From: Raillietiella orientalis
Taxonomy: Eukaryota
Direction of reading: 5' to 3'
Length of the DNA: 64,000 nucleotides
Assembly (NCBI GenBank): GCA_036172245.1
Contig: JAYWIR010000101.1
Location: forward strand, 124,001-188,000
In this document: one piece after another, positions 15,746-51,500 of the stretch
How positions within the stretch are numbered: position 1 is the stretch's first letter
How the letters are laid out: every line of letters begins with the position of its first letter
Position numbers and translations under genes: made by a program
Notes under the pieces: generated by a model
The model's database searches: none
Told to the model about the DNA's origin: nothing
Seen by the model: only the letters and a program-made list of their open reading frames with translations

Positions 15746-15967
15746 GGATCGCCCCCGGATCCCCCTCACCGGTGGTGGTATCAGGCATTGCTGCCTAATT
15801 CTCCACCCTTACCACGCACAACCACCAACGGAAATGAAACTCAGGAGCAGCGAAAAGACACGTCCGCTCGACCCTCAGCAATCTCCAGGATTGGGATCTT
15901 TTTAAGGTCTCGGTCCGCGAGTTTATCGAGGAGTTCCCCTTGCACCGCCTGCCCCGGGGATTTGGGG

Positions 15968-16290
15968 TTGCCACCCGGGTACGCCCAGGGCGTTTATTGA
16001 AAACTCTACAAAAACGTGGTACGAGGCCCCACTAACGGCCGCCCAACACCGGACCTGCTGGGACGCCGGGACGCAGCCCAGAGCGACGCTGCTCGGGTGC
16101 GGAGGGGAGTTTGGGAGAAAACAAAAATAAAAGAAAGAAAAAAAAAAGGAGTTTGGCGGGAGGGGAAGGGACCACTCTCCACTAGGAGGAGGGCCCATCC
16201 TTCGCAGGATGCTCTCTAGGTCCTTCTGCGCTTGTCCCAGATGGGGCCATCTCGCAGCATTTCGCATGAAGCTCACGGCATACGGGATGC
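15968..16290 (-). mobile_element. Tx1 B 3' end inserted at a GFG site
   Basis: IPYAVSFMRNAARWPHLG, B 3'UTR, hairpin abutting host ..RGFG. Confidence 0.88.
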
Positions 16291-16300
16291 CGGCATACGG

Positions 16301-18334
16301 TCTTATCTGCGCTCCTGCTGGCGCAACGCGTACATAAATATTGGTTTCAGCGGCCGGCACGTGTAAGGCGTGCCAGTGCGTCGCGGTATCCGGCAGGGTG
16401 ACAGCCTGAGCCCCTTGCTCTTCAGCATCTACTTCGAGTTGGTGCTGAGGGCATACAGGGTAACTCTGGCAACTCTGCCGAGCTCGTGTGCCAGCACGCC
16501 TGCTATGTCGGCCTATGCAGACGATCTACTGCTGCTGCTTCCCGGGTCCACCCCGGGGAGTGCGTTCGAGGAATTCTTCGAGTTGCTGCTCCGCGGGACG
16601 GGCCTGGAGGTGAACAGGGCGAAGTCGTCTATGATGTACGTCGGCTCGGCGTGGGCTGGACGGTCGGACTGGATCCGCTTGGGGATCCCCACGGGCAGGT
16701 GCTTCAAGTACCTAGGCGTTCCGATGGGGGACTTCTGCGCAGCAGAAGCCTGGTCCGACCGTCTCCAAAAGGCAGAGTTGGCGATCGGTCCGTTCCAAGA
16801 AAGCAAGTTCTACTTGCAGGAACGGGCCGAGGTGTGGAACGCGTTTGCGGCCCCCCTTCTTCGCCCCCTACTTTTTTGTGTGCCCCGTTTCTCATTTTGT
16901 TCAGAAAAGAGCAGCGGGCCTCCTGAGGACAGTCCTTTGGGGCAAAGGGAGGTCCCGTGTGAGGCTCAAAGACTTGTGCGCTCCACGTAAGGACGGAGGA
17001 CTTGGCGTACTTACGCTGGAGCGCATCGAATTACAACTTCGCTTCAGGACTCTCGCCCTCGCGGCAGAATTGTGGGACACGCCTTGGTGCGTTCCAGCAC
17101 GCCTCCTGGCCCAACGAGCCTGCGGATCCGGTGGACTTTTGTCGTTTCCGTCTGCGCGCGTCTGCAGAAGAGCACACTGTGGCTCTATGCTGCGACGCAT
17201 CCCCGTTGCGGTTCTGGAGAACGCCTGGATCTCCTGCCTCCCAGGGAACTACTCTGCCTGGTTGCACGAGTCAGTCTCCACCTGGGAAAAGATCCACGTT
17301 CCGGCGGGCACAAGGAACACTTGCCTGAAAAGGCACGCCCGCTGGACGCTGCAGGAGATCCTGCAGTCCCACGACAAGCTTCTATGGGCCTTGATAACCC
17401 CCCTCGCCCCAGTGCTGCCCTTCCTTGTGAATGCCAGGGACAGTAGCGAGCAGGGGAAATGGACCGTGTCCTGCACCATAGGTGGCAGGACACAATCGAT
17501 AAAAACGTGGACATCTTGGCAGCTAGCTGACGCTGCGACGCCGAGTGTCCCGCCCGACGGAATTCGACGCTGGGGAGAGCTACTCGGACTATCTCCGGAG
17601 GAGATGAAGTGGCCCCCAGCGTCCTGAAACAGTGGATCCCTCCCTCTTAAATGGCAGGAGGTGACGTTGCTTGTAATGCATTGGGGTTTACCCTGTAAAG
17701 CACGCCTGTACCACACCACTCGGGGGGCTGTGCATCCCCAGTGCGACCGGTGTGGGGAAAAGGAGACCTTCCCCCACCTTCTAATTGAGTGCAGTGGCAT
17801 CCGCCCTTTATGGAATCGCCTAACGGCGTTTCTGGACTTGCGCGGATGCGGCCCCAAGGACGTTTTCATGCGCCTCCTCTGTAGTGACGCCTTGTCCCCC
17901 CCCGCTTCTGTAGCAATCCTCTGCTGCATTAGGGATCGTGGCGGCTTGGAACGCCACCAGAAGAAGACGTCAGCCAACTGGCAACGCCTTACGATGGACT
18001 CGCCTATTTGTGCGAGCTTTATGCAAGTGGCGCCACTTAGGCGCACAGAGAACTCAGCTTGTCCGGATCCTGAATAGGATCTAGAGGACCTATCCGGGCG
18101 CACACGATCCCTTCCCTGCCCTCCCATCCCTAAAACATTTATCCCCTCCCGTGTTTAAACTTTTTGTTTGTTTTGTTTTTTCTGTCCCAACCCCCGCGCA
18201 TCGGAAGGACCCCTCCGGCCTAGCGCCGGCAACCAGCAAGCTGTTTTGTCGTGGTGCACCTTCGGGTTCTCCACTGGAAAAATTAATGTATTTTTATTTT
18301 TCGAAATAAATGCCCCGGCTTATCCGGGTGAAAA
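16301..18334 (+). mobile_element. 5'-truncated Tx1 lineage H (RT, CCHC, 3'UTR)
   Basis: GIRQGDSLSPLLF, YADD, KYLG, CDRCGEKETFPHLLIEC, AATAAA-hairpin-AAAA. Confidence 0.88.
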
Positions 18335-21300
18335 CAACCGTCGGTGCAGAAAGAGAGGAGGCGGCGCGTATAACGGACGCGACCTTCGCGCAGGCCGCGG
18401 AAGAACTTTCAGCCATGTTACGGCAGCCTGCCAAGGCCGAGAAGAAGGCCTTGAGACGACCGGCAACGGTGAAAGGCCCGGAAAATTCCGAGTCCGAAAC
18501 CGAAGCCGGTTGTTCTACTTCCGCAGCTGTGCCGAAGAGGAAGGCTGGCAAGAAGACCGGTTGCCCGAAAAGGGTCGCCCCTCCACAGGTGGATGAGGCC
18601 ATGTCTCCGGGCACGGAGGAGGAGGATATGTGCGTGGCGCCACGCGACCCCTCTCCGATCCGTGTCTCCGAAGCCAGCCCGATGGATGTCGCTGTGGAAG
18701 ACGTGCTCCCGTGTGAGCAGCCGACCGTCGTCACGGCCGCCAACGAGCCGCCTCCCGCAAGGGAGGAGGCCGCCTCCACCCCACAATAAACGCACCAATG
18801 CGTGGGCTCGCCTCCTGCCGCCGCTTGCGCATTACTTGGAACGTCAACGGGTTGCGCGACGACGGTAAGATGCGAGACGTAGCCGCCATACTGCGAGAAT
18901 TCGACCTTGTGCTCCTGAAAGAGACGCACGTTCTTAAAGCAGAAGTCCAGGAAATGGAAAGAATCGCGGGAGGGCGGCTACTGTGGAGGAACGGAAACGA
19001 CCGCTCCTGCGGAGTGGCCTTTATGCTGAAGCCAGCCGTCGACAACGCATTGCGCTGCGTGAGGTTCAAAGAGGAAGGTCGAGTTGGGCAGCTTCCGTTC
19101 AAGTGATCCGACTCGATCGACCTCATAGTCACGAACCTGTACGCTTCGGTGTGCAACCACAGGGCCGAGAAACGCACTGCGTTCTTTGAATTACTGCGGC
19201 GAGAGTGGCTGGCTGAAGCAAGCGTACGACGAGTGCACTTCATTGCGGGCGACTTCAATCTCCGCCTGCTGGCAGGTGCGCCGTGCATTCGAGCACGACT
19301 GGTCAACGAGTTTTGCGCAGCCATCAATGCGCGCAACTTGTTGGCCGGTGATGCCTGGAGAGATCGGAACATCGACTACATGTTCCTCGACAACCACCTG
19401 TGCAAGCAAGTGGGAACTCGAGGAACGCTCCCGGCACAGCTGTCCGACCATCCACGGCTCGTGCTTGAGATACAACCACGCGACAAGGGCGCTCCCCGGA
19501 AAACGTGGCGCCGCCCAAGGGACTAATGGCGCCTCGCAGGAGCGGCGGAACATCTGCGCGCCTTCCTGCGAGGATTCCATCTTGAGACGCTCGCGGACTG
19601 CGACGAAATGAAGTGCTCAGTCCGCGAGTTTTGCAATCAGTTTCCCCTGGAACATCTTCCGCGGGGCTTCGACGATGCCACCCGGATACGTCGGGACGTT
19701 TATTAAAAACATTTCGACAGTCAATACAGAACGTGGTACAAGGCCCCACTTACGACTACGCAATACCGGAACTGCCGGGACACCCGGACGCAGCCCGGTG
19801 TTGCTCTCCTCGGCAGTGAAGGGAGATGGGGGAGAAAACAAAAATAAAATAAAAGAGAAAAACAAACTACAAAAAAAAGTTTGGAGGGCCGGGAAGGGAT
19901 CACAGAAAACTGCTGGGAGCGCCCATCCTTTGCAGGAGGCCTTCTAGTTCCATTTTCAGTTTTCCTAGATGGGGCCATCGGGTAGCTCTCTGCAGGAAGC
20001 GAGAAGCATACTCGATGACGTCCCTCACGATGCAGACTTCATCTTCGGCATCACTCCAGGCCGCCACGATACCACGAATTCAGCAAAGTGCTGCCAGGGC
20101 TGCGGCTGGATTGAGGACGTCCCGCATGAAGACAAGACTGTAGACACATCCAACGATGCCACCATCCGGTATCCCAAGGGCCGTTTTAAGACGATTCCAA
20201 AGAATCTGGACAGCAGGGCATTCAACTAAGAGGTGGGGGAGCGACTCTCGCTCCCCACACCTGGCACACGCAGGATTAACTCTACCCCGCGTCCAGTGGA
20301 AGCGGCGCGCGTTGCAGGGTAGACCCCAATTCAGACACAGAAGCGCCGATACTTGCCACTTCAGGGGAAGAATCCTAAATCCAAGTAAAACCGGAGGCCA
20401 CTTCAGGTCATCCAATCGAATGCCGAGCAGCTCGCCCCATCTTCTTAATCCAAGCGGCTGGAGACTAGAGGTCGTTGCATCTGTCAACTCTCCCATGGTC
20501 AAGCAGCTCATCATCTTCTCTCTGCCTGCGATACGGCAGCAGACTTGCCACCTTGGCTTCCGACTTTCGTGAAGCGCTTTCTGGAGGAAGGGAATCGCCG
20601 TAACAAGCGGTGTGCCTTCCGCCCACCTGCAACTCTGTGGAAATTCAAGAATTTCACGGAGAGTTCGGCGGGCGTAAAAGCCGACTCGCAGGCAGTTAAT
20701 CCGGTCTTTGCACCTCTGGTTCTGCTTGGCCCACGTGTCAGCAGTCTCTTTCAGCCAAGCGGAGGACTTGGCGAAGCCACAAACCTTCCAGTCGTTCTCC
20801 TTTGCAAGGGTTGCCGAGCAGAAGACCGCATCTTCGAATCTTCCGGCAACGGTACAGAAGAAACGATGCGAGTCCATCGCACCGGGACACACAGCTGGCC
20901 AGGAGGCAGGCCGAAGTGCACCAAGGGGCGCTCCACATCTTCGCTAAGATGGCGAGGGTTCGCCACCGCAGCCGCTTCTCCACGCGCTCCAGCGTCAGGA
21001 GGCCAAGACCTCCTTCCCAACGCGGAGGGCACAAGTCCTTCAGAGGGACTCGGGGCCTCCCCTTGCCCCAAAGGGCGATACGGAGGAGGTCCTTTGTCCT
21101 CTTCTTCCATTCCACGGTGGGGAAGCAAACAAAAAGAAGAGGCGGAGGATGGGGGCCGCGAAGGCGTTCCAAACCGCGGCCCGTTCCGGCAAGTGAAACT
21201 TGCCTTCCAGGAACGGGCCGATCGCCGTCTCGACTTTTTGGAGGCAGCTGGACTACACTTCCGCAGGGGAGTAGTCCCGCAACGTCACACCAAGGTACTT

Positions 21301-24300
21301 GAAGCACCTTGCCGTGGGGATCCCCAGACGGAACCAGTGCTGCTGCCCTACCCACGCCGCACCTATTGGCACCACCGACGACTTAGCCCTGTTTACCTAC
21401 AGTCCAGTCCCGCGGTTGACCAGATCGAAGAATTCCCTGACCGTCTTTGCCGGGGTGGACATTGGCAACAAGAGCAGAAGATCGTCGGCGTAGGCTGTTA
21501 CGGCGGACGTGCCGGGGCACGAGCTCGGCAAGGGTGCCAAAGTTACCCTGTACGCTCTCAGCACCAACTCAAAGTAGGTGCTGAAGAGCAGGGGGCTGAG
21601 GCTATCTCCCTGCCTTATGCCCCGCCGCACCGGCATGCCATACACCTTGTGACCTCTGAAACAGACGGTAATCATCGCATTCTGTTAGCAAGGGCGCAAA
21701 TAGGAAATCATGGAGAGTGGGAAGCCCATGCGACCCAGGAGCTCCGAGAGTAGTTCCTGGTCTACACAGTCGAACGCATTGTGGAGATGGACTGCGAGCG
21801 CTAGGGCCCCCTTTTCCGATCGAGGGTCCCTTCCAAGCCAGGCTGGCGACCCCAATGTGGTGTTGCCGACTTTTCCTATCCCTTTCTTCTCTCTTCTCTA
21901 CAGGTGCACCCATGTGCTTGTGAAGAAGAGGTTGGCATCCATACTTCGCCCGGGAAAAGCATAAGTCTGCTCCGGGCTAATTACGGATACTGCCACCTAC
22001 CCCAGACGCGAAACCCATAGCCCTGCTATCAACTTGGCGTCCGTATTCACGATCGTGATCGGACGCCAGTTCCTTGAATCCCAGAGGTCTCCCCCTTTCG
22101 GAAGGAGTCTCACTCTGGCTGACCGTTACGAGGCGGGAACATCGCCTTCGTCTCGGATCAGCCTGATCAACTTAAGCAAATGGGATGCAGGTATTTTGCG
22201 AAGCTCTAGGAGAACTCCGCGGGCAAGCAGTCTCCCCCTGTAGCTTTACGCCTCTTGAGCCTTTTGATACCGGCCAGAATTTCGCAGGTGGTAAAATGCT
22301 TGTCGAGGATTTCCATCTCCTCCGCCCCTATTGACGAGGCGCCATCCGGAAGCAAGCGCCGAGAGTCGTCTCGATCTCGGGCTTTCTGGCGTAAAGAGAG
22401 GATTAAAAACACCGCACGAGATGCCGCACCGACGCCGGGGACGAACATTATTGGGCATGGTCGTCCAGGAAGCTGGCCGACCCGGATTGCCAGGCTTGGC
22501 GTTCGGCCCCGGCGCGGCACTCGGCCAGGCGACGGACATTAGGGGTTCTCTCGTAGCTACGAGCCTGTAAATAGGCCCGATGGTTGCCAGCACCCTCGCC
22601 GAATCCGGGGGGCAGACGATCCAGGGGGAACTGCTCACAGAACTCGCGGACCGATTCCTTAAAAAGGTCGCAGTCCTGGAGTTTCCGGAGCGTGACACCT
22701 CTCAGGTATTCGCGAAGGTATTCCTTCGCACCTGAGAGTCGCGTCCAGTCCCCCGGCAGACGCCAATCCCTGGATGGCGGTCCCTTGTCACGAGGCCGCA
22801 TCTCGAAAATTAACCCGGAATGGTCCGACAACGTCGACGCAACCCTCCCCCGTTTGCCGACGCCTGAACACAGGTCAGCGTCGAGGAAGACGTGGTCGAT
22901 GCTGCGGACCATTCCCCTCTCACCCGCGAACAAGTTGCGCGCACGTATGGCGGCGCACAACTCGTTCATCACGTTCACTTGTGTTTCCGGCTCACCTGTT
23001 TGCAGGCGGAGATTGAAATTTATCACCCGCTCACGCCGGGGCATTTATTTATAATAATAAACTAGTCAGAGACAATGTCACCAACCAACAGAAGGACAGA
23101 GAACATAGAAAAATTACCGGCACGCAGGCCTGGTAAACAAACCGCTCGCAGCGTGGGGGGAATGAGGGAAAACAAACAAAAATCAAAACCTGGAGGGAAG
23201 CGTAACGGGTTTTTGGTTAGATTCCGTACTCACGGGGATTCAAACGATGAGCACCTAAAATGTTCCGGAGCCTATGGGGACGCGGGTGTAAAAAGAAAAT
23301 ACAAAATTAGTTTATGGAGGGTAGGGAAATGATCACCGGGTTGGCCGCTGCTGAGCGTGTGTAAACTGGCGGTGTATTGCGGCGAGATTCCTTTTTGTCT
23401 CCTCTGTTAAATGAGGCCATCTAGCGGATGCTCCCATGTAGAAGGATGCTTTGCTGATTGCTTCTTGGTGGTGTCCGTTGATTACCAACGCCTGGCGGAC
23501 GGAAACTATCGCGCGTAAGCAACCGATGGTTGCAATCCTTGCGCTTAGCGACAGCCCGCTCGGAGTGAAGAATCGTCGCAGCAAGTTTCTTGCGGTGTCC
23601 ACTGGATGCATTAGTGCTGTTGCCAGCCTACGCCACAGTCCTTGTAGGACACCACAGTCCAGAAGTAGGTGCGGAATCGACTCCGTCGATCCGCACCGAA
23701 CGCAGTTCGCAGACGCAAGTCCCCCGGAGTCACGATGCCAACGCTCGTTGCACTGAAAACCCCAGTGAACGAAAAGCAGCACGGCTTCTTTTCAAGCAAG
23801 GGGAAGCAGCGAACTGTTAATACACTGTGGAGGTGCCACAAGTTCTTCGGGGGCGACAGCAAGTTCTTCTGCCCACCGGAAGAGTCCCTTTGCAGTAACA
23901 CGAGGAGTGGCGGCGTCCGCCAACTCTTTCGTCTTCCAGGCGCCAAGGAGTTTGGTTTTTCCCGCTATCGTGCAGGAAACCTCCCACCTCGCCGGTTGGT
24001 AACTGTCGTTTCTTGCCCTGAGAGAAGACAGAGCTGCGGCAAGAGGCGTGGCAGCCAGGGTAGAAAACTTCATTTCGTCCTGCAGCACTTCTTCCAAGGA
24101 TCGTGGAAAAAATTGGCGCAGGGGGCGAAGATCTTCAGGGCATAATCCTTGAAACGCCGCCCAGGATTCAATAGACTCCTGCCACTAAGCTCCAAAGTTC
24201 ATTGGGCGGCAGGAGATCCACGAGTGAGCTTCCAGAAGTGCAGTCAACTGCCGTAATGGAAACTCGAAACCCCGCTTCCTGTATTGAATGCCTGCAAAAG

Positions 24301-27300
24301 CGAGAGAAATCCTCCGCTGCCGGCGCATCTCCGCAGGAGAATGCGGGCTGGCACACACAGGGGGGAAGTCCATAGCGGGGCACACAGTGCCAGCAGTCGG
24401 AACTGCAGCTGCAGTCCGATTCGCTCCATTGTCAGGATACCCAAACCAGAATCCCGACGCGGAGCTAAGAAATCTTTAAGGCGGATCCTGGATCTCGCCT
24501 AACCCTAGAGAGCGTTCCTGAGCAGGCGTTTAGCCCGCTGTTTTGCCGCATAGGAGGGGGTCCAAGACAAAAAACAGGGGACGGAGGAGGGGGGCCACAA
24601 AGGTGTTCCAAATAGTCGCCCGTTCCTGCAAGGTAAACTTGCCGTTAAAGAAAGGGCTGTTGGCCAACTCTGCTTTCTGAAGACAGTCCGCCCACGCTTC
24701 GGCTGCGCCCAAAGCGTCCAACGGAACGTCTAGGTACTTAAAGTACGCGCCCGTGGGGATCCCCAGGCGGATCCAGTCGGACTGCCCCTCCCACGAAGTA
24801 CCCACAGGAACGACCGCGCTCTTCTCTCTGTTCACGCTCACGCCCGCTCCCCGACGAATCAGTTCGAAGAAATCCTCGACACTGGACGCCGGGGTGGACA
24901 TGGGGAGCAGAAGAAGCAGGTCATCAGCGTAGGCGGCCACGGCAGGCGTTCCCGGTTAGGAGCTTGGCAAGTGAGACAGCGTCAGCCTGTATGCTCTTAG
25001 CACCAACTCAAAGAAGATGCTTAAGAGCTACGGGCTTAAGCTGACGCCCTATCGGATGCCCCTACGAATGGGAATACCATACACGCGGCAGCCGGTGAAA
25101 GTAATGCAAATTGGCGCGTGGCGCAGGCACGCGCGCAAATACAGCAGGAGTTGCGCCGGGAACCCAAGGCGTTCCATAAGCTTCAAAAGAAGCTTCTGGT
25201 TTACGCAGTCGAACGCCTAGTGGAGATCGACCGCGACCGCTAAGGCACCTGGGGTTCCCTCCTGCAGTCGGCGCCTGTTCTTCTTGCCTGCGGCAGTGAC
25301 TTTCGTAGCAGCCTGGCTTTGCTGCGCCACAACTTCCTGCAGCTGCATCCATGTACGCGCGAAAAGGATGTTCGCCTCCATGGATCGTCCCGGAACCGCG
25401 TAGGTTTGTTCCGGGCTCACCACAGATTCCGCGATACTTCCTAACCGCGCGACCCACAGCTTGAAAAACAACTTGACGTCCGAGTTCACCAACGTGATCG
25501 GACGCCAGTTGTTAAGTTGACGCAAGTCTCCGCCTTTCGGAAGGAGACGCACCTTCGATGAGCTGAAGGAATCCGGGACATTCTCGGATTCACTCATCAG
25601 CGTCGCGAGTTTCAGCATCAAGGGAATGAGCTCCACTGCAAAGCACTGATAAAACTCTGCAGGAAGCCCATCCTCGCCTGGCGCCTTTCGTCTCTCCAGC
25701 CCAGCGATGGCGGACGAAAATTCATCCGCCGTGAAGGGCTCGTCGAGACGTTCGCGTTCCTCCTCGCCGACAACACGAGCATCCTGAGATAGGAGTATCT
25801 CAGAAAGAATATCCTTTGTCGGTAATTCCGCGTACAGAGAGGAGTAGTAGCGTCTCACAATGCGGCGTACTTCGGCTGGGGCCGAACATTCCTGGCCCTT
25901 GTCGTCCAACAGGCATGATGCTCCGGACTGCCAGACCTGTCGCTCGGCCCTTGCCTTGTACTCTGCGAGACGCCCGACATCGGCGCGTCTCGAAAACGTG
26001 TGGGCCTGCAGAAAGTCTCTACTGTTGGCCACACCCTCTCCGAAACCGTGTGGAAGCTGGTGCAAGGGGAATTGGCAGCAGAACTCGCGGACAGATCTTT
26101 TGAGATCGTCCCAGTCCGCAAGTTCTTGAATGGCAAAGCCTCGGAGGTATCCACGTAGATGCTCCGCAGCCTCCGGTTGGCTAAGCCAATCCGCCTGCAT
26201 CCTCCAGTTTTGCAACGGAGGCCCCGTGCCTGGCGGAAGGATCTCAAACTCCAACCTGTGGTGGTCAGAAAGTCGGAAAAAAAAACAAAGGAATCACAAA
26301 AAAAAACAAAAACTCCAAAAAACAATAATAATAATACAAATCAGAACGCGAGCGTTCACAAAAAACCCGCGGTCGGCAAACCGAAAATTTCACCGCACGG
26401 GGCCATAAAGGAATGCCGCGTTACAATCGAACGCGTTCCGTCGATCGAGCCTCGATCGGCGAACGCGACTCCCGGAACCGTTGCGAACGCCGCGGAACCG
26501 CCGCAGGAATCCTGCCACAAACACGCGAGCAGCAGCGACGAGAAAAACTTCGCGAAGGCGGCGGAGAAACTCGCGGCCAACTTAATGCAGCCGCCTAAGG
26601 CTGCAAAGAAGGCCGTAAGACGTCCGCCGGAAGTTAAGGGCCCGGAAACTTCCGGGTCCGAGGCGGAAGCCGGGAACCCTCCCACCGTCGCCCTTCCGAA
26701 GAGGAAGGCGGGCCGGAAGTCGCGCAACCCTATGCGCGTCGCTCCCCCTCAGGCTGAGGAGGAGGAGATGCGCTCGGATAGCGAGGAGGCGATGTCCGCG
26801 AGGTCGCGGGATCCCTTCATCAACAGCATTCGGTCGGTCCTTCCTATCGACCTCAGTCCGGCTGCAGACGTTCCGGTCGTTGCTGAAATGCCACCAACTC
26901 AGATGGATAACGACCAGCCGCCTTCCGAACAGGAGGCGGCAATACACACGCCACCACCATCACTAGTATGATGCGTGGAATCGCCTCTTTCCGGCAGCTG
27001 CGTATAGCCTGTTGGAATGTCAACGGGCTGCGTATCGAAAGCAAGAGGCGTAACGTGGGCAACACCCTGCGACCTTTCGATCTGGCACATCTTTAACAGG
27101 TGCATGCCCTCAGAGCAGAGGACGTTCAGGAAATCGAGAGGCTCACAGGGGGGAGCTACTTTGGCGTGGTGGAGGAGACCACTCCCGCGGAGTGGCCTTC
27201 CTGCTGAAGCCGGCCGTCGCCAATGCGGTGCACAGTGCACAGTTCGACGAGGAATGTCGAGACGGACGACTTGTCCTTAAGTGGTCCGAATAGATCGACC

Positions 27301-30066: not shown

Positions 30067-31729
30067 ATGCCTGACGCGACCACCAGGGATGGCCAGGGGG
30101 CAGCGGCAACGCCGCCCCCAGAGGCGATGGAGAGCCAGAGGGCGGCGGCAACGTCGCCCCCAGAGGCGATGAGGGTGGGGGCATCCGCCCCCACAGAATC
30201 GGTCCCCGCTGCAGCGCGGGCGTGGAGCGCCGTTGTGTCGGCGCCATCGCCTGCAGCCGCGGCGGAATTGTCGGCCTATGTAGAGGAGGGGTACAATCCC
30301 TCATTGTTCTACAAGGTAGGCAATTTATATTCTTTAGAGATCGCGCGCGCCTTCTCGAAGGGCATGCGCGCTCTCGATGTGAAAGTGGAGGAGCTCAGCG
30401 CTATGACCATCCGCAGCGGGTGTCAGTACGTTAAGGTCATCTGCAAACATGCAGAGCTGGCCCAACGACTGCTTAAAACCCCCGTTGTGATGGGGACGCG
30501 CAGGCTTCTCCCCACTACGGCTGACCGCAGCATGGTGGTACACCTGTTAGGCGTGACCGCGCGAATGCGCAAAGAACAGGTTCGCGCCGCTTTGGAACAG
30601 TTTGCAACGGTCCACTCGCAGTGGACGAAAGTTAGTCCTTTCGAGGACTACGCGGGGCTGCAATACGGCCTCACTGCTGCGCGCGTGACCGTTCGGGAGG
30701 GCTGCACTCTTCCCCACAAACTGGTGGTCGAAGGCGAAACCGTCGACCTCTGGTATGTGGGGAAGCCGAAATACTGTGGCTTCCGCCATACGTCGGGCCA
30801 CCTCAAAAAGAGGTGTCCCAATGTGCAGTGCCAAGTATGCAGCACAATGGGCCACACGAGGGAGGTGTGCCCAAAAGCAGCAGTGCGCGTCGTTTCCAAG
30901 AGAAACCTTGAAAAACGCGCCCGGCTTCTGCAGAAAAGACTGGCGGCGAAAGCTGCCGCGGAGGATGTGCCACCCGCGCCCAAGAGCCACGCCGCACCCG
31001 AGACCCCGGCGACCAACGGCGAAAAAGTTGAGGGAGCCGGCCAGGAGACTGACTGGCAAGTGGCAACTCCCAAAAAACCAAAGAAGGAGAGGAGGATGGA
31101 AAAGAAAATCGCCTACCAACAGAAGAAGAAATGAGCAGGGTAGCGCGATAATTAAAGAGTGCAGCGTTGTTGTCGAACGCGTTCTCGATGTTGCCGAACG
31201 CTGCCGGAAAGAACTCGCCGCTACCGACGACCTCCCTTCTGTTGACACAGTCAACAGCGAGGGGAGCGTGCCGGCGGCGGCGTCCGTCATCGACACCACC
31301 ATCGATGACGTAGCCTTCGCGCGAGCCGCGGAGGAGCTGGCAGCCTCGTTGCAGCCAGAACCCTCCAAGGCTGGCAAGAAGGCCGTAAGGCGTCCGGCCT
31401 CCCCTAAGGAGTCACCCACTTCCGACCCCGAGGTGGAGGCCGGAAGCGCAGCCTCCGTTTCTACGGCACCGGGCAAGAAGGCTGGACGTAAGTACACAAA
31501 GCCAAGGAAGCTCGTACCCCCCGTCGAAGGGGAAGAGATGGCTTCCGCAAGCGAGGGTGCCATGAGCGTGGAAAACTCTCGGGACATGTCGCCCGAGAGA
31601 CTCCCACGCACGGACACGGAGGGGATGGAGGGGGTGGAGGCCGAACAGGTGCCTCAGGTGCCTGAGAAGGCCGAAACCCCCATGGACATCCCGCCCGTCT
31701 CGCAAGAGGAGGGCTCCCCCACACCTTAA
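30067..31729 (+). pseudogene. Lineage A ORF1, frameshifted near 31125
   Basis: ORFs 29917-31134 + 30755-31729; CQVCSTMGHTREVC knuckle. Confidence 0.85.
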
Positions 31730-40500: not shown

Positions 40501-41121
40501 TTGACTAGCGGCTGGACAAGAGGAGAACTGGTCGATGCCACGACCCCGAGCGTCGGGCCGAGAGGATTATTAAGATGGGGCGAGCTGATCGCCATCCCCA
40601 GGGATGAGCTGAAGTGGCCCCCGGTGATGAAAGAATCCAGAATCCTGCCCCTCAAGTGGCAAGAGTCGGCGTTTCTTTTGTTGCACTGGGGTCTACCGTT
40701 CAAGGCGCGCCGCTTCCACTGGACGAGGGGAGCTGTGGATCCTGCGCGTGCCAGGTGCGGGAAGCGGGAGTCTCTCCCCCACCTTATTGTGGATTGTGCT
40801 GCGCTCCGACCCCTTTGGGAACGGTTCGGGACGACCCTCGGGCTCCCTACAGGCAGCACCCCCAGAGACGTTCTTCGGCCCCTCTTCGTGAAGGACGCAC
40901 TGCAGCCCGCCGCAGCCATCGCAGCGTTGTGCAGCGTCCGTGGCATCGTGGCGGCATGGAGCGACGCTAAATACGAAGGCGTGGGTCCACAGTGGCGGGA
41001 TGCCATCCCGTCTGTCCAACGCTTCTGGCGAAGAAATGCCGTATGGATCCAACTGGGGAATATGAAGACTGACCTCGAGGGCTTCGTTCGATGGATGTGC
41101 CCTCCCCACAGCGACCAGTGA
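37527..41121 (+). pseudogene. B ORF2 APE-RT-CCHC, disrupted
   Basis: ORFs 37760-38992, 39011-40288 and 39700-41121 carry all domain motifs. Confidence 0.9.
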
Positions 41122-44100
41122 TCCCTTCCCCGCCCTCCAACTTGATTTTGTTCGTTTCTTTTTCTTTTTCTTTTTGTCTTATCCCCATCTTCCTTCGCTG
41201 TTGGGGAGTGCCACGCCGGGCTGCGTCGCGGTGTCCCGACAGGTCGCGTGTTCACGGCCGTGGTGGGGCCTCGTACCACGCATGTAGAGTTCACAAATAA
41301 ACGCTCCGGGTGTAAACGGGTTACAACTTTAAATCCCCGGCGCAGACGTTGCACAGGGATCTGTTCGCAGAACTCCCGGACCGAGTCCTTAAATAGGTTT
41401 CAATCCGCGAGACTCTGGATGCTGACGCCTCGCAGGAATTCGCGAAGATGTTCTTTCGCTCCTGACAGGCGCGTCCAGTTTCCTGGCATACGCCAATCCC
41501 TGGATGGCGGTCTGTTGTCGCGCGGGCGCATCTCGAAAACTAACCGGGAATGGTCCGACAGCGTCGATCCAAGTGTCCCTCGTTTTCCGACCCGTGTGCA
41601 CAGGTCTTCGTCGAGGAAGACGTGGTCCACGCTGCTGACCATCCCGCTTATTTCTGTCAACAAGTTGCGCGCGCGCATGGCGGCGCACAACTCGTTGATC
41701 GCGTTACCCTGTGCTCCGGGCTTATCTGAGAGCAGACGGACGTTGAAATCCCCTGCTATCAGATGCGCCTTTCGCACGTGCGCGTCCACCAGCCATTCGC
41801 GCTCCAAGGTTTCCAGTAACGCGTTGCGCTGCTGGTATCCCTGTTTACCGCTAGGAGCGTACACATTGGTGACGATGAGGTCGATCGAATCGGACCATCT
41901 GAGAATCAGTTGGGCGATCCGTCCGTCGTTCCCAAAGCGCACGCCCTTCGCGGCCGCGTTAATAGCTGGCTTTAGGAAGAACGCGACCCCACAAGTGTTG
42001 CGGGAGCCGCATCGCCAGTACAACCGCCCTCCCGCGATCGTTTCGATCTCCTTGCCGTCTTTTGCGGTGATCACGTGGATCTCCTGCAAAAGCTCCAGGT
42101 CGAAATCTCGCAAGGTGGCGGCTGTATCTCGTCTGTTTCCGTCGTCGCGCAGCCCGTTAACATTCCAACTGGCCGCGCGGATCCGACAGCGACAGGCGAG
42201 TCCAGGTTTTATTTCTGGGAACCTGGCGGTGGTGCTCCCGCCACCTTTTGGGGCGGGTCGCTGGACGGGGTTGGCGTCTTGCCCACGAACTCCCCATCCT
42301 TCTTTCGTGCCGACGTCTCCGGCTGCCCGTGCGAACGGGGTGTTGTTCGTACCTGTTGGCCCACATCCATTGGTGCGGGTGGTTCAGGTTCGGCGGTTTC
42401 AGAGGGCATTGCTGACCCCTGGTTACCCTCCTCCATTGGAGTCGCCTCCTCGTCGGCTTCCGCACGTGGGTGATGCCCGACTTGGGCTCCCACGCTGCCA
42501 TCCACTGGTTCCTCTACCATTGGATCCCCCTCGCGCGGAGGCGCAATGCACCTTCGGGGTTTCTGGGATTTTCACTCACACCGGCTTTCGGCGAAGGCGT
42601 GAGGAACGACAGGTACTATCTCCAGACCCGTCGTTCCTCCAACAAGCCCGACGTCCGACGCCTGGCGGAGACTAAGGCTGGAGCGGAGAGGTAGGCCTGG
42701 CAATCCGGGTCTGCCTGCTTGCTGGACGAAGAAGGCCAAAAGCACTCATCTTCAGCGCAGGTTTCCCGCATTCTGCGGCATTTCTATTCGTCCCTTTACG
42801 CGCTGAGACCACCAGAGCGCTCCTTTGCGCAGCGCCTGCTGCCAGAGGGTGCTCCCGCGTTGAGGGAGGAAGAAATAAACATCTTCCTCCAAGAGTTCAC
42901 GATGGCGGAGATAATCTCCGTCATCACTAAATTGAGAAAAAACAAAGCACCAGGGGAAGACGGCCTGCCAGCTGAATTCTACCAACACTTCGCGGCAGAG
43001 CTGCCCCCCCTGGTGCTAAAACCATGTATGCTGATAGGTGAACGTGGGGATGTCCCCAACTTGTTCCGGTCAGCTAGAGTACCTCTCCTTCCTAAGGCAG
43101 GAGACTTGCGCAACGTTGGCAACTGGCGACCCATTACTGTAGTGAATGCGGACGCAAAGTTGCTCGCCAAACAGTGGGCTGAGCGCCTGGGACGGGCTGC
43201 GGACTTCGTGGTCAGTCCGGAACAGACATACGCTGTTCCCGGACGAACCATGGAGGCCAACCTGTTCCTCGCCAGCACATTCTGGAAGTTGCAACAACGC
43301 GAGGCGCAGCTACGGCGGGAAAGTCCTGGACTCTCCATTGACAACGGGGAGGAAAGCCGAAAAGAAGATGCGTCGCCTGGAGCCCTTGCGGTCGCAGTCG
43401 ATTTGCGTAAAGCTTTCGACTGCGTCGACCAAGAGCTCCTTTGGGAGCTCCTGAAACGCTTGGGATTTCCGGCCGTCTTTCTGGCTTACCTGCGCTCCTG
43501 CTGGCGGTTCGCGCTCATCAATTTCAATTTCAGCGGCCGGCACGTGTTCGGCGTACCGGTCCGTCGTGGCATCAGGCAGGGTGACAGCCTCAGTCCCCTG
43601 CTCTTCAGCATCTACTTTGAGTTGGTGCTGAGAGCATACAGGGAGACTTTGGCAACCCTGCAGAGCTCGTGTCTCGGCACGCCTGCCGTGTCGGCCTATA
43701 ACGACGATCTTCTGCTCCTGCTTCCCGGGTCCACCACGGAATCGGCGCTCGAGGATTTCTTAGAGTTGCTATACCGTGGGACAGGCCTCCAGGTAAACAG
43801 GACGAAATCGTCGTTGCTTTTCACCGAATCGACGAGGGCCGGACCGTCGGACTGGATCCGCTTGGGGATCCCCACGGGCAGGTACATCAAGTACCTTGGC
43901 GTTCCGTTGGAAGACTTCTGCTCTGCAGAAGCCTGGTCCGACCGTCTACAAAACGTGGAGCTGGCGATCGGCCCGTTCCGAAACGGCTAGTTCCACTTGC
44001 AGGAACGGGTCACGGTATGGAGCGCTTTCGCGGCCCCCTCCTTCGCCCCCTACTTTTTGTCTGCCCTACACCTTACCAAATTAGGACACGGACTAGAAGT

Positions 44101-45549
44101 CTTATACGTAAAGCCCTCTGGGGCAACCGGAGGCCCCGCGTCCGGCTCAAAGACTTGTACGCACCACACAGGGACGGTGGAATGGTCTCCTGACGTTGGA
44201 GCGCATGGAGCGACAGCTATAATTCAGAAAACTTGCCCTTGTGGCAAAGTTTTGGACAGCACCCTGGTCTGCACCAGCAAGACTCCTTGCTCACAGGGCA
44301 ACCGGCTGCTTCGGATTGACTTCAATCCTGGTAGCCAACGAACGCAGCCTGAACCATTGTGGTTATCAGCTGCGGGATTTGGTTGCTCTGATGAGAGACA
44401 ACCCTTGGATCTCCTGCATCCCAGCGGACTGGACTACCTGACTTCAGGAGTCCGTATCCGCATGGGCGAAGATCAATGGCACCAGCGATGAGGACTTCTC
44501 CTGCCTCCGCAGAGGGAGGCACGCTGGTCAGCCACTCCAGGAGATCGTTTCCAACCCACGGAAACTTCTGTGGGCTTCCTCCACCCCCTTTACCCCAGTG
44601 CTGCCCTCCCTCAGGGAAGTACGGGACAGCAACCAACAGGCATCGTGAGAAGTGTCCTGCCTCATCGGAGGCAGGAAGAAATTACTGAAGGCGTGAACGC
44701 CGACGGAACTAGAGGACGCTAGTACCCCGAGTGTCCCGCCGAACGGACTTTTACGCTGGGGAGCGCTACTCGGTATACCTCCGGAGGAGGTGAAGTGGCC
44801 CCCAGCGTCATGGGACAACGGCACCCTTCCTCTGCAGTGGCAGGAGACATCGTTGCTTCTGCTCCACTGGGTACTTCTAAGCAGAGCACGCCTGTCTCGC
44901 TGGACATCGGGGAATGTGGATGGTAGTTGTGCAGAGTGCGGGGAAAGGGAGAATTTCCTCCACTTGATTCTGAAGTGTGTTGCCCTTCACGAAATGTGGG
45001 ACAGACTCTCGTCGATCCTCAACATTCCGGGGGGTAACCCGAAAAATTTATTCAGACGCCTTCTGACGCCATACGGCTTGCCAGCCTCCGGGAGCGTAGC
45101 AGTGCTCTGCCGCATACGCGGTATCCTGGAGAAGTAGACCGCGTCTAGGAGAGGAAGGACCAGCCGGGATGCCATCCACTGGGCAGCGATCTCCTTGGAG
45201 AAAGCGTGCCGTTGGCGCAGAATTCAAAAACATTTACCGGCATTTGTCCGCATCCGAAACCGGATGCAAAGTCCTGCTCACGGCGCACCGTGATCCCCTC
45301 CCTCCCTCCCCCTCCCCAAAAACATTGCCCTCCAGACGTTTTTCTTTTTTTGTTTTGTTTTCTGTTTATTTTCCCCTTCTTGGCGCCGGTGAAGGACTTT
45401 ATCGGCCTCCGGGTCGATAAAGACAAGTGCTACTGAACTTCAAAGAACGTCTCACGTCCGAAAAAGAAAAATTTCAACATAGATTTTATTACAAAATTTT
45501 GTAATGTAAAAATTTTAGTAATAAAAGCCACGGCTTACCCGGGTGAAAA

Positions 45550-47360
45550 ATCCCGTCGGGTTTCGTGGAGACTTCGCGTTGCTTCGCGGCGAGCGTTTCC
45601 TGGCTGCCTACTTTTGGTCGGCGTGCACACGCTTTTGAACGAGTTGTCCTCGTCTTGGTGATCGGAACGGCATCCATTTCAGAGTCAGACCGGCGCATGT
45701 TCGATCGCGTTCCGGCCTTCCGCGAAGTAGTGACAGGTTCTGCTGATTTGACAGCTGTCCTGTTGTCATTTTCCGTCTCCAGAGCATCGCTTTTGGTGAC
45801 GCCTGCTTTCCCGGCGCGCGCGTTTTCAGCGTGCTCACGCGCAGTTGCACGAGGGACCTTTGCTGTAGTCTTCTTTACTTCATTACGGTTCCTCACTTCG
45901 CGTGGCGCCGTAAATGGAGATTGTGCTCCATGGCCATCTTTGAAGCCGTCCGCGTCTTTGGACGGGAGCACTTTCGATGGCTCCGACACGCTCGTCATGG
46001 ACGCTGCTTTCGGAAGGGCTTTTAATCCCTTCGTTGGCATGGCATCCGCGCCAGTCGAGAGCTTGCTCTCCGACTGCGACGGCGTGAGATTTTTCTCCGC
46101 TTTCGCGGGGTTGGATCGCGACGCGGATTTTTTTTTGCCGACTTTCGAAGTCGACACGGCACAACCCTTCTTACCCGATTTGGGCTTCTCAGCCACTGCA
46201 GGAGGTGAAGGAATGGATCTGACGGTACTGGAAGTGTCCTTACCGCCGTTGTCCATTGGCGTCCCCGCCGGTTGCTCGAACTCCGAGAGAGCCGGGCGTG
46301 CTTGGGAAGGACAGCTATTGCGCCTAGGGGGACTTACCATTGCCCCGGTTTCCCCGCACCCTTTCTTTTGCGGCTCCCCTGCCGCGAGAGGGGGTGCGCA
46401 GGGCTTCGCGTGCGAGGTTTCCTGCTGCTTTGGGGCGACATTCCGCCTCGCGTTTTTACCGAATTTCTGCCGTAGGGTCTCCAGGTTTTTCGCAGATTTT
46501 TTCTTTTTATCCGCGCTTTGTTCTTTAAAATAGAGCTCCGCGGCTGCCTTTTTTCGCAAAAGATCCGGGCAATTTTTCAATTGGTGCCCGGATAGTTTGC
46601 AATAACGGCATTTTCCAGAGGGGCATTTATCCAAACAATGCCCCTCCTTCCCGCATTGCTCGCACGTTTTTACTTTGCCCACGAACCACAGGTGAACGAC
46701 CGTGTCTTTCACCTGTAGTTTGGTGGGCAGCAGACGGCGGTCCGGCATTGTAAGCCGGACTCCAGCGACTCCGCTGTGTATGGACGGGAAGTTCTTGAGG
46801 TTGCTACGCACCTTCCACAGCGCATGGACCGTGGCGAATTTCGCCAACGCGTTCCGAATATCAGTATCGGAGATTTCCGACTCGATGTCGAAAATCTCCA
46901 CCACAAATGAGTCGTCCATGGCGGCCGGGATGACCTTCTGGCCACGGATCGACAACGGGGTGCGCAGCAAGCGTTGCACAAGTGCAGCGTCTTTGCAACG
47001 CACGTTGAAATAGCCCATGTCTTTTGCGGGCATAATGGCGAGAAGGTCCTCCTCCCGCACGCCAACACGGGTCAGTTCATCGTTGAACTGATTCCCGTCG
47101 CGCGCAGAAAGAAAACCACTCACCTTATATCGGAGAGCAGGTCTATAGCCTTGGGCTACGTATGCCCGCAACTCCGACTCGTCGAGTGGTTTCCCTTTGA
47201 CGGCTGCTCTGGCAGCAACGTCAGCAAAACTCCTCTCCATTGGCGAGAAAGACGAAGTGGAGGCGGCCGTCGGTTCCGCGATTGCAGATCCGGATGCTGT
47301 TCCTCCAACTTCAGTAGCTTCAAGTTGGGTCGACATCGTCGTCAAAATGTACGACGCCAA
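45550..47360 (-). pseudogene. Lineage E ORF1 (gag-like, two CCHC), truncated by the C insertion
   Basis: ~600 aa open; CEQCGKEGHCLDKC and CRYCKLSGHQLKNC. Confidence 0.85.
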
Positions 47361-48440
47361 GATGAAGCGGATGAAAGCACGGAGACGAGAGCGAAGAAAA
47401 ACACGTCCGCACTCGATTGAAATCTCCCGCTATTAGGTGAGCCTTCCGCACGTGCATGTTCGCCAGCCAGTCGCGCTTCAGGTATTCCAGCAGCCTGGTA
47501 CGGTTGCTGTATCCCTTTTGACCGCTTGGGGCGTACACATTCGTGACGATCAGATCGATCGAGTTGGACCAGCCGAGAGTCAGCTGACTGACCCGACCGT
47601 CGTCATCGAAGCGCACGCTCTTCACGGCAGCGTCGATGGCCGGCTTCACGAAGAACGCTATCCCGCAGGTGTTGCGGAGGCCGCATCGCCAATACAGCCG
47701 ACCCCTCGCGATCGTTCCGATTTCCTGGGTGTCTGCCGCGGTGATCACGTGGATCTCCTGCAGCAGCGCCAGGTCGAGCTCACGCAGGGTGTCGGCTGTA
47801 TCTCGGCTGTTGCCGTCGTCGCGCAGCCCGTTGACGTTCCAACAGGCCGCGCGAATCCGACGGCGACTGGCGATCCCAGGTGTTAGTTTTGTGAAAACGG
47901 CGATGCGGCGTCCGCCACCTGCTAGGGCGGGACGCTAGGTGGAGGCGGAGGGTGGACAGGTACTGAAGGCACCTGTTCCTCCTCCTCTATCGGTGCCGCC
48001 ACTTCGGCCGGATCACCCGCAGGTGGAGTCGCGCCTACCTGTTCGCCTTCCTCCATTGGTTCGGGCGGCTCAGGTTTCGCGACTGCAGGGAGGATTTCAC
48101 CCTCCTGCTCACCCTCCTCCATGGGGGTGGCCGACTTGACGGCTTGCGGGCGTGGGTGTTCCCCCTCCGGGATTCCCACGCTGCCGCTTCTTTCCGGCTT
48201 CTCCTCTTTTCTGGTGGAGGGGAGGCGCCTCCTGGGTTTCTGGGACTTGCGTCTCGACTTCCTATGGGGTGCCTCCGGAGAGGAGGATCCGCTTCCGGCC
48301 CCCAGGTCGCACTCACCTGCGGGGGCCTTCTTCGTCGGAGGCGACCTGCGTGCGCCCTTGCGCCACGGGGTTTCGCGCTCGGCGAGGGTTTCTGCGAGCT
48401 CCTCCGCCGCTTTCTCGAAGGCCGAGTCTTCGCCAGGGGC

Positions 48441-48554
48441 GAACGTTGCCGCGGGCTCCTCCGCGACTTTATCGAGCGCGGCCTCCTGGATGTCGGCGAA
48501 CGTTGCCGCGGGCTCCTCCGCGACTTTATCGAGCGCGGCCTCCTGGATGTCGGC
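48441..48554 (-). repeat. Perfect 2 x 57-bp in-frame tandem repeat in ORF1
   Basis: ADIQEAALDKVAEEPAATF twice. Confidence 0.95.
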
Positions 48555-51500
48555 GAGCGAGTCTCGCGTCTCACTCTCTAACCGAGAATCGGCTCCTCCA
48601 CGCGAGTATTCATCGCGTCCGCATGAGCTGTTGCGCGAACATTGCCGCTGGCGTACTCGACAGGAACGGCTAAGCGTTCCAGCGCCACCGAGCATTCGCA
48701 GAGTTGTTTTTTTGTTGAAAGCGGTGCGGGTTTTTTTTTGTTGCCGGCAGTTTTCTTCTCCGACTTTTCTTCTGGCATTAATTTCTTTTTTTTTTCTTTC
48801 CTGGCCTGAACCAGCTGCCAACCCTCCTCCATTTCCGCTTTCACGGGAGCTCTTTCCTCCGACGTCTGTACGGGAGGAAGTGAGGCTGGCAGTTGGGAAC
48901 GGCCATTTTCGCAAGCTGGTCTTTCTACCAGCTTTCCACGTTTTCCCTGCGCCTTTTTGGCGGCAGGGCGCACCGGGGTGGGGCGCTTGAGGCACACGCG
49001 CCGAACGTGACCCTTTTCGCCGCATAGGTGGCACACAGTGTTCGGGCACCTTTTTCGTAGATGCCCTACTGCATTGCAGTAGCCACAAAATTGGCGTTTT
49101 CCCACGTACCAGAGGTCCACCGCTTCTTGGCAGACCTCCAGCTTATGGGGAAGCGCACCACCCTCTTTTACCGTGATACGCGCCGCAGCTTGACCTCCGA
49201 AAAGGCTATTGTAGCCATGGAAAATCGTGGACTTCGGCCACAACGCGTGAACTTCTCCGTGCTTTTGAGGCTGTTCTCGAACCGCTGACCTCGTCATGCG
49301 ACTTGAGATCCCAGTGAGATGGACCACCACGGAGGGGTCCATCGTTATCGGCAAGATCTTACGACCATCAACGATCAGCGGGTCGGTGATCGGGTGTCGG
49401 GCCAAGGTGATATCATTGCATACCACCTCGACCCGCTGCCCGCCGCTGAGAACGTAGAGGCCGTCGAGATCTTTTTTGAAAATATTGGCGTTCTGCAGCG
49501 CCTTCGTAAAGGCGCGTGCAGTTCGCTCATCGAAAAGGTTGCCTACCTTGAAGACTAGCGAGGGTTTATACACCGCTTTCTTGTAGGCTTCCATCTCGGC
49601 CATGGCTTCTACGCTAGGCGCGGCCACCATGACGCTCCATGACCTCGGCGTCTCCGGGGACGATTCCGGGGCGGATGCCCCTGATCCAGTAGGCTGTGTG
49701 GACGAACAAGCCTCCATCACGCCTACTTCCATCGCGGTGTCCTCTGGCAACGCTGCCATCGGACACCGACGATGTGCACGCACAAATAACTCAGCAAGAA
49801 ACTACTCGCTTTGCCACGCTGGCGGAGCGAAGGAAAAGCACGTCCTCTCTGCACAGCGGGGATTCGGGGACGGATTCAGGAACGAGCGGTCATACCTTCA
49901 GGCCCGCAGTTATTCCAGGCGTCCCGACGTCCGTCGCCTGGCAGAATTCAAGGCTGAGGCGGAGAGGCAGGCCTGGCAGTCAGGCTCGGACTGCTTGCTG
50001 GACCATCAGGGCTAAGAACGCTCCAACCCAGCTCAGGTTTTTCACGGGGGTAAGCCGGGGCTTCTATTACTAAGATTTCGAGATTACAAAATTTTGTAAT
50101 AAAGTCTTTGTTGTTGAAATTTTTTTTTTTTAGGACGTCAGACGTTTAGTAGAGAAGTACAGTAGCACTTGTTTTTACCGATCCGGAGGCCGATAAGGTC
50201 CTTCACTGGCGCCGGGGAGAGAAAAATAAAAAGAAAACAAAACAAAAAAAGAAAAACGTCTAGAAAACAATGTTTTTGGGGAGAAGGAGGGAGGGAGGGG
50301 ATCACCGTGCGACGTGAGCAGGCCTTTGCATCCGGTCACGGGTGCGAACAAGTGCCGGCAAATTTTTTCGAAGTCGCCGCCAACGGCACGCTTTCTACAA
50401 GGAGATCGCTTCCCAGTGGATAACATTCCGGGTGGTCCTTCCTCTCCTAGACGCGGTCCACTTCTCCAGGATACCGCGTATACAGCAGAGCACTGCTACG
50501 CTTTCGGAGGCTGGCAAGCCGTCTGGCGTCAGAAAGCGTCTGAATAAATTTTTCGGGTCACCCCCCGGAATGTTGAGGATCGACGAGAGTCTGTCCCACA
50601 TTTCGTGGAGGGCAACACACTTCAGAATCAAGTGGAGGAAATTCTCCCTTTCCCCGCACTCTGCACAACTAGCATCCACATTCCCCGATGTCCAGCGAGA
50701 CAGGCGTGCTCTGCTTAGAAGTCCCCAGTGGAGCAGATGCAACGATGTCTCCTGCCACTGCAGAGGAAGAGTGCCGTTGTCCCATGACGCTGGGGGCCAC
50801 TTCACCTCCTCCGGAGGTATACCGAGTAGCGCGCCCCAGCGTAAAAGTCCGTTCGGCGGGACACTCGGGGTACTAGCGTCCTCTAGTTCCCTCGGCGTCC
50901 ACGCCTTCAGTAATTTCTTCCTGCCTCCGATGAGGCAGGACACTTCTCACGATGCCTGTTGGTTGCTGTCCCGAACTTCCCTGAGGGAGGGCAGCACTGG
51001 GGTAAAGGGGGTGGAGGAAGCCCACAGAAGTTTCCGTGGGTTGGAAACGATCTCCTGGAGTGGCTGACCAGCGTGCCTCCCTCTGCGGAGGAAGGAGAAG
51101 TCCTCATCGCTGGTGCCATTGATCTTCGCCCATGCGGATACGGACTCCTGAAGCCAGGTAGTCCAGTCCGCTGGGATGCAGGAGATCCAAGGGTTGGCTC
51201 TCTTCAGAGCAACCAAGTCCCGCAGCTGATAATCACAATGGTTCAGGCTGCGTTCGTTGGCTACCAGGATTGAAGTCAATCCGAAGCAGCCGGTTGCCCT
51301 GTGAGCAAGGAGTCTTGCTGGTGCAGACCAGGGTGCTGTCCAAAACTTTGCTACAAGGGCAAGTTTTCAGAATTGGAGCATTCGCTCCATGCGCTCCAAC
51401 GTCAGGAGACCAAGTGCACCGTCCCTGCGTAAAGCGCACAAGTCTTTGAGCCAAACGCGGGTCCTCCGGTTGCCCCAGAGGGCTTTACGTATAAGGCCCC

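Follow-up and report, generated by a model that had tools for sequence, protein, structure and literature searches.

Recurrent insertion of L1-like retrotransposons at one coding site in the ORF2 of their own family in a 64-kb stretch of Raillietiella orientalis DNA

The element Tx1L inserts into the DNA transposon Tx1D. Transposons are among the targets listed in the introduction of PMC4640811, which reviews target-specific long interspersed nuclear elements (LINEs). Passages in PMC8226300, PMC3446292, PMC9940879, and PMC11005252 describe Zepp and Zepp-like LINEs of the L1 type as forming nested clusters, targeting existing copies, and giving rise to tandem arrays of 3' ends, and a passage in PMC6911290 describes the nesting of plant long terminal repeat (LTR) retrotransposons in one another as non-random. 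The present analysis concerns a stretch of 64,000 nucleotides from Raillietiella orientalis (assembly GCA_036172245.1, contig JAYWIR010000101.1, positions 124,001 to 188,000 of the forward strand; referred to as the window), in which copies of an L1-like LINE family are nested in one another, and in which five elements with one kind of 3' end, designated B-type, are inserted at a single site in the second open reading frame (ORF2) of other copies. The site specificity of these insertions was confirmed, but it should be noted that all of the results come from this one window, which limits the weight of the finding.

The insertion site in ORF2

The 3' region at 5268-5968 has six other copies in the window, with identities of 75-83% in a self-BLAST, and there are therefore seven B-type 3' ends, at 5963(+), 15967(-), 19674(-), 27852(-), 35540(+), 41327(+), and 58745(+). 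Five of these (15967, 19674, 27852, 35540, and 41327) adjoin residues 256-259 of the ORF2 of another copy, on the opposite strand. At all five junctions the host coding strand reads GGN-TTY-GGN, with the reverse complement of the insert's last bases immediately after it; the exceptions in the last codon are GAC in host D and AAA in the left copy of host B2 (copies are named as in Table 1). The peptide encoded at the site, L-P-x-G-F-G, is located just past the endonuclease domain, and its G-F-G corresponds to residues 250-252 of the ORF2 at 55066-58458 in the tblastn map. The first-pass annotation had described five such insertions, in the same codons and register and antisense to the host, and all of the junctions exist, to within 0-2 nt. 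As in other target-specific LINEs, a single base of a repeated target has received independent copies, all of one orientation (five of the seven B-type ends).

Trees of the reverse transcriptase (RT) region and of the AP-type endonuclease (APE) region of ORF2 separate four lineages, A, B, C, and E. Lineage B comprises ins4, ref, B1, B2, and the 3' part of ins3 (support 100/100), and lineage A comprises A1, A2, c, and the 5' part of ins3; C groups with h in the RT tree (91/95), and its neighbor in the APE tree, D, has weak support (81/76). Both C and D are outside the B clade in the APE tree, as C is in the RT tree; D has no RT part to place. Host F, in its piece at 15873-15966, is 77-87% identical to the B copies versus 55-64% to C and D. 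The four hosts of the B-type inserts represent three lineages, in agreement with the earlier view that they differ.

The 3' ends of the other lineages are distributed differently, none of the eight (c, A1, A2, h, C, C2, E, and k) being at the site: c is at residue 226, C2 at residue 311, k at about residue 21, E at residue 110, and C at the end of ORF1, and the 3' ends of A1, A2, and h are joined head to tail to another copy. The contrast between five of seven and none of eight has a one-sided Fisher p of 0.007, and, for an element ~5.8 kb long, the probability that chance would place five hits within ~3 nt and on one strand is on the order of 1e-13 (both by our own arithmetic). These values bear on the possibility that there is no sequence specificity, only a preference for, or survival in, a repeat-rich region, with a coincidence of sites that is due to chance or to an artefact of assembly. 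All lineages do insert into other copies (nine nested inserts are antisense to their host and two are in sense), and the lineages other than B use scattered sites. Also, in X1, a DNA run that contains 0.15 of the words in a comparison in which no RNA run was listed, the contigs are short and mostly less than 90% alike: of 165 short contigs that match 26900-29900 at 80% likeness, 109 are below 90%, and the junction at 27852 is not reached by any of the eight pieces listed out of 169. However, such a coincidence is scarcely credible in view of the calculated chance and the contrast between lineages, and duplications, together with host halves that continue at the same codons, are not what an artefact would yield.

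The nucleotide motif GGNTTYGGNGA occurs seven times in the window, as compared with 1.83 expected from shuffles, and six of the seven are at the ORF2 site. As had been claimed, the peptide motif is shared by the lineages, being kept across all of those in the window, but the nearest database relatives, which are 21-25% identical, lack it; L-P-x-G-F-G is a motif specific to this family and not a general L1 one. The B-type elements are probably sequence-specific L1-like LINEs, with a target of 12-15 bp that encodes L-P-x-G-F-G-(E/D) in the ORF2 of their own family.

The first-pass annotation also proposed that the choice of this site is an adaptation that disables competing lineages and provides a safe harbor. 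The insertion does separate APE from RT within ORF2, C and D, which make up half of the four hosts, are from other lineages, and the motif is common to all lineages in the window. However, B-lineage hosts account for three of the five hits (B2 twice and F once), the other two being in C and D, so that the B-type elements strike their own kind at least as often as sister lineages. The hits therefore represent kin- and self-targeting, and a knock-out of rivals receives no specific support from them. Furthermore, nothing shows that the hosts were alive when hit, and a harmless multicopy target would suffice, as passages in PMC4640811 indicate for other target-specific LINEs. An adaptation against rivals is accordingly regarded as improbable.

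Independence of the events and the determinant of specificity

Host D with its insert B1 and host C with its insert B2 are colinear over 3 kb across the junction, at 82.9% identity in the self-BLAST, as might be expected if one or two old insertions had given rise to all five junctions by copying at the DNA level, through segmental duplication or gene conversion. However, the identity changes exactly at the junction, from 71.1% (622/875) between the hosts to 88.4% (1865/2110) between the inserts (Fisher p 1.2e-28); in 150-nt windows it is 67-75% up to the junction and 89-96% directly after it, and the right-hand host pieces of D and C are 71.7% alike. The position of this step leads to the rejection of DNA-level duplication, which the first-pass annotation had called unlikely. 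The 5' ends of the inserts also vary, B1, ins4, and ins3 being full length, B2 being cut in ORF1, and g being a stub of 0.3 kb, yet host duplications flank both B1 and B2; g is nearest to the 5963 copy (85%), as compared with 72-73% identity to B1 and B2, and the hosts are of three lineages. A common origin of the junctions by copying of DNA is, on these grounds, extremely improbable. The tandem arrangement of ins3 and ins4 within B2 is most simply viewed as two successive hits on the same site. INDEPENDENCE stands ahead of the comparison of D and B1 with C and B2.

Site-specific insertion of this type most likely proceeds as follows. The ribonucleoprotein of the element would nick the coding strand of the host directly after the third codon of G-F-G, and the 3' OH freed by this nick would prime reverse transcription at the exact last base of the B RNA, which would end 26 nt past AATAAA and a small conserved hairpin, without poly(A) being copied. 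A second nick, ~12 nt upstream on the other strand, would generate the short duplication. The positions, register, and strand of the insertions, their independence, and their restriction to the B-type 3' module are demonstrated, and we infer the nicking enzyme, the order of the nicks, and the part of the ribonucleoprotein that reads the target. The recognized sequence is asymmetric, and every insert is therefore antisense to its host; since every family member in which the motif is retained is a target, and B copies are among these, the elements build nests.

The last 40 nt of the elements (for example, 58706-58745) contain AATAAA, a 5-bp hairpin, and a C-C-G-G-G-T-G block in every lineage, and the elements stop 26 nt past AATAAA without poly(A) or an A-run. 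Three of the five pairs of the hairpin keep their pairing through compensated changes on both sides, and the last six bases distinguish the B-type ends from the others. This layout appears to be that of the "stringent" LINEs, which recognize their own 3' tail. The 3' end of Zepp carries a poly(A) tail, a feature that the elements in the window lack.

Both host halves are present for three inserts (B1 in D, B2 in C, and ins4 in B2), and the halves resume at the same codons, in favor of site-specific insertion by the B-type elements as it is described above. A number of observations weigh against it. Duplications, which had been put at about 14-15 bp, are indeed found at these three inserts, but they are of 12-15 nt and imperfect: 12 nt that are 10/12 alike for B2 in C, 12 nt that are 8/12 alike for ins4 in B2, and, for B1 in D, copies of 12 and 15 nt that are separated in length by a 3-nt gap. 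The 11-12 nt ahead of the 5' end are identical in the full-length B1 and ins4 and may therefore travel with the RNA instead of being duplicated at each event. It is also conceivable that ins3 and ins4 represent one event with a template jump, which would reduce the number of integrations from five to four. Five copies with an unbroken motif remain unhit, and an open ORF2 is present in no copy in the window, the ORF2 of ref having one in-frame stop, that of ins4 being in three pieces, and those of the remaining copies being divided into several pieces in the tblastn map. When metagenomes were scanned with ORF2 and P0013, a related protein, no close relative with DNA context was obtained.

In addition, two of the seven B-type ends, at 58745 and 5963, are elsewhere, at sites that do not resemble the target. 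The first-pass annotation had suggested that both keep the core of the target in register, but the flank at 58745 has at best 7/12 identity to a hit site, a value that is equalled or beaten by 5.3% of the 12-mers in the window, and the flank at 5963 has 4/12, so that neither is better than chance; a "near-target" reading of the 58745 site was rejected because of this frequency. The similarity of longer flanks of 5963 and 58745 to the G-F-G hosts was not above that of shuffled controls. The copy ref, which ends at 58745, is nested in sense in ORF1 of an A-lineage copy (52188-53099/58746-62926), with a duplication of ~12 nt; the view that it is merely in tandem with the A copy was rejected. A candidate duplication at the 5963 copy was read by eye and is not counted as a result.

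The insert ins3 is informative with respect to the part of the element that determines the site. It is A-like, in a region that includes the endonuclease and most of RT, up to ~34212, and B-like in its last 1.3 kb, at 34213-35540: its identity to A1 and A2 is 78-97% up to ~34212 (from ~31640, where both are well aligned) and 51-71% thereafter, and the reverse is found with ins4 and ref. Its APE groups with lineage A (99/100), a further point against the reading given above, and, since it nevertheless sits at the site, the specificity is not simply creditable to the B APE acting in cis. The attribution of all five insertions to lineage B consequently stands for their 3' ends, which are B-type, but the endonuclease of one insert, an A/B chimera, is A-type. 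The site therefore goes with the B-type 3' module, consisting of the last ~350 residues of ORF2 and the 3' untranslated region (UTR). The structure of ins3 is compatible with three explanations: a B-type 3' end may have been used in trans by B proteins, reverse transcription may have switched its template from B RNA to A RNA, or the determinant of specificity may be outside the APE domain.

The target might, alternatively, be read by RNA-DNA pairing and not by the endonuclease. Transcripts that read through at the 3' end, or that start upstream of the 5' end, would carry 11-13 nt of target; such transcripts of copies already at the site would anneal to the nicked or broken target and fix the register, and it would be the 3' module and the location, and not the APE domain, with which specificity is passed on. 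This would account for the presence at the site of ins3, with its A-type APE but B-type C-terminal region and 3' UTR, and for the agreement of B1 and ins4 in the 11-12 nt that precede their 5' ends, which is closer than that between the two copies in D; the location of AATAAA 26 nt before the end also makes cleavage a few bases into the flank plausible. However, the 5'-truncated B2 has a genuine host duplication (10/12), which is impossible from its RNA, the chimera is explained equally well by a template switch or by mobilization in trans by B proteins, and a nick at that base still needs a maker. Pairing with RNA is therefore considered rather unlikely as the means of target recognition. A more general proposal is that a LINE lineage homes on the DNA for a conserved peptide of its own family's ORF2, that each new member is a new landing pad and self-nesting arrays result, and that specificity resides in the 3' module (C-terminal ORF2 and 3' UTR, or target-derived RNA ends) and not in the endonuclease domain. 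The last element of this proposal is suggested by the location of the A/B chimera at the site; the proposal as a whole is tentative and somewhat doubtful.

The nest and the element family

The map of the nest (Table 1) was obtained by tblastn with the ORF2 at 55066-58458 (with X at its stop) and with ORF1 as queries, together with the self-BLAST of the window. The nesting is six levels deep, when the outermost host is counted, and includes three head-to-tail joints. D(+) holds B1(-), which holds E(-), which holds C(+), which in turn holds B2(-); B2 contains ins3(+), then the 12-nt target copy, and then ins4(+). Farther to the left, the B-like host F(+) holds the stub g(-).

Table 1. Coordinates of hosts, inserts, and other mapped elements in the window
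Feature	Position	Strand	Description	Basis or comparison
Host F, piece	15873-15966	+	B-like ORF2, ~residues 226-256; ends in G-F-G codons	tblastn
Host F, second piece	10245-10333	+		
Insert g	15967-16289	-	0.3-kb 5'-truncated B-type 3' end, antisense at host F G-F-G	
Host D, left half	18336-19673	+	ORF1 end and ORF2 residues 1 to ~257	
Insert B1, 3' part	19674-23018	-	ORF2 residues 110-1130 and 3' UTR; 3' end on host D G-F-(G)-D codons	
Insert B1, 5' part	47415-49856	-	5' UTR, ORF1, ORF2 residues 1-114; full-length 5' end at 49856	92.3% to 35542-37994
Host D, right piece	49857-50037	+	Resumes at R-G-F-G-D codons, then cut by C-lineage copy	
Host C, left half	26588-27851	+	Up to G-F-G codons; true 5' limit within 26290-26588	
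Insert B2, 3' part	27852-29973	-	ORF2 residues ~533-1130 and 3' UTR	
Insert B2, 5' part	41328-42580	-	5'-truncated in ORF1; ORF2 residues 1-258; itself host of ins4 and ins3	
Host C, right half	42581-45550	+	Resumes at G-F-G-E codons	
Insert ins3	29974-35540	+	Full-length A/B chimera; ~0.8 kb of host B2 absent on its 5' side	
Target copy	35541-35552		12-nt copy of host B2 target, between ins3 3' end and ins4 5' end	
Insert ins4	35553-41327	+	Full-length B copy; open ORF1 35776-37527; 3' end on B2 G-F-(K) codons	
ref	53100-58745	+	B-type copy, off-site	Sense in A-lineage ORF1
Fragment a	5272-5963	+	B-type 3' fragment, off-site; surroundings without detected similarity to elements	
Element E, 3' part	23019-26290 (right limit approximate)	-	Layer between B1 and host C	
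Element E, 5' part	45551-47414	-		

Other features of the nest involve elements of the remaining lineages. E is in sense at the G-D-F-N codons of B1, which encode a catalytic motif of the endonuclease, with an 8-bp duplication (23011-23018/47415-47422). The pair A1 and c (10334-15872) is antisense in host F at ~ORF2 residue 226 and is bounded as one unit by a duplication of ~14 nt (12/14 alike), as if it had been inserted in a single event. Fragment k, at 14449-14663 (+), is a 0.2-kb 3' end of a further lineage that was detected solely by a scan for the tail motif; it is antisense to A1 and replaces ~1.2 kb of it (~ORF2 residues 21-414). C2, a C-lineage copy at 50038-52188 (-) that is 93% identical to the one at 42581-45550 (+), is antisense in host D at ~ORF2 residue 311, 180 nt past the B1 insertion. 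At the edge of the nest, the left end of host F adjoins, head to head, a B-like piece of ORF2 at 10020-10247 (-) that contains residues 353-428 and is 81% identical to ref. Assignment of h (16290-18335) as a continuation of host F was rejected, because h groups with lineage C and F is B-like.

At each of the head-to-tail joints, 12015/12016 (A1-c), 18335/18336 (h-D), and 62926/62927 (A2-C3), the exact 3' end of one copy is joined, without an intervening duplication, to a 5'-truncated copy of like orientation; the joints look like template jumps or Zepp-like tandem arrays. Host sequence of 0.5-1.2 kb is missing on the 5' side of four inserts, ins3, C, k, and perhaps g, and beside ins3 and g the ORF2 sequence that follows restarts at nearly the same place (~residues 533 and 548).

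Copies of the family, on both strands, fill the window from ~10,000 to 64,000, where the G+C content is 55-64%. The ORF2 of ref, at 55066-58458, is nearly open and has the organization of the L1 superfamily, an N-terminal APE followed by RT, accompanied by an ORF1 with a CCHC zinc knuckle. In Pfam, Exo_endo_phos scores 24.2 bits on ORF2, just below its cut-off of 24.5, RVT_1 scores 26.8 and 34.2 bits on the two halves against a cut-off of 29.6, and zf-CCHC scores 23.5 bits on the ORF1 at 35776-37527 against a cut-off of 20.8. The best match of ORF2 among solved structures is human L1 ORF2p (E 7.6e-33); the L1 endonuclease matches weakly. The best long matches in a protein database search are unnamed proteins of 21-32% identity. 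The relative P0013, a fragment, is 66% identical and is encoded on a contig of 2.9 kb; with it, the Atlas gave general reverse-transcriptase clusters only, and both a row "Transposon TX1 ... family," with a score of 0.88, and the prevalence of diatoms among its Atlas neighbors are to be taken as leads only. Seven metagenome loci were matched at 22-35% identity, or at 61% over just 28 residues. In the leftmost 10 kb of the window there are no recognizable genes; a weak match (63.5 bits, model positions 675-1449) to eukaryotic large-subunit rRNA, located at 1010-1659 (+) where the nest has its low-GC flank, may be a decayed piece of rDNA.

Comparison with known systems

The target-specific APE LINEs of the Tx1 and R1 clades, whose targets, in the portions of the literature cited here, are rRNA, snRNA, and tRNA genes, microsatellites, telomeric repeats, and transposons, resemble the B-type elements in being precise to the base and fixed in orientation and in the use of a multicopy target and target-primed reverse transcription. 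They differ in that the target here is the protein-coding ORF2 of the element's own LINE family, including its own lineage, and literature searches turned up no case of a LINE homing on a coding motif in the ORF2 of its own family. Nesting of plant LTR retrotransposons, the nearest idea found, is, as described in the passage cited, a preference at the level of regions and is based on integrase, whereas the present case involves a single nick site in a coding motif. The template-switch chimeras of LINE-1, in the parts of bioRxiv 10.1101/2025.02.02.635956 that deal with them, look similar to ins3 and to the three duplication-free head-to-tail joints, but in the present chimera two LINE lineages are combined, and the B-type insertion site is retained. 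This natural A/B chimera could be used to find the part of an APE-type LINE that reads the target.

Zepp, from Chlorella and Coccomyxa, and the Zepp-like elements of green algae are L1-type elements that, in the passages cited, form GC-rich nested clusters; the window is likewise nested, with 5' truncation and head-to-tail joints, and both clusters of nested copies and tandem 3' ends are found in it. Those passages of the Zepp literature give no defined target base or coding motif, and the primary papers (Higashiyama 1997, Noutoshi 1998, and Yamamoto 2003) may say more. The present insertions differ from those of Zepp in being at one codon-level site and always antisense. Target specificity and self-nesting thus meet here, at a codon-level site in the elements' own ORF2, and simple recognition of a sequence, a target site of 12-15 bp, would explain the formation of the nest. 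If homing on the family's own ORF2 is correct, it would provide a mechanism at the level of bases for Zepp-like, possibly centromere-forming, LINE clusters and, if the nests mark centromeres, as they do in green algae, it would link the building of centromeres to the specificity of an endonuclease.

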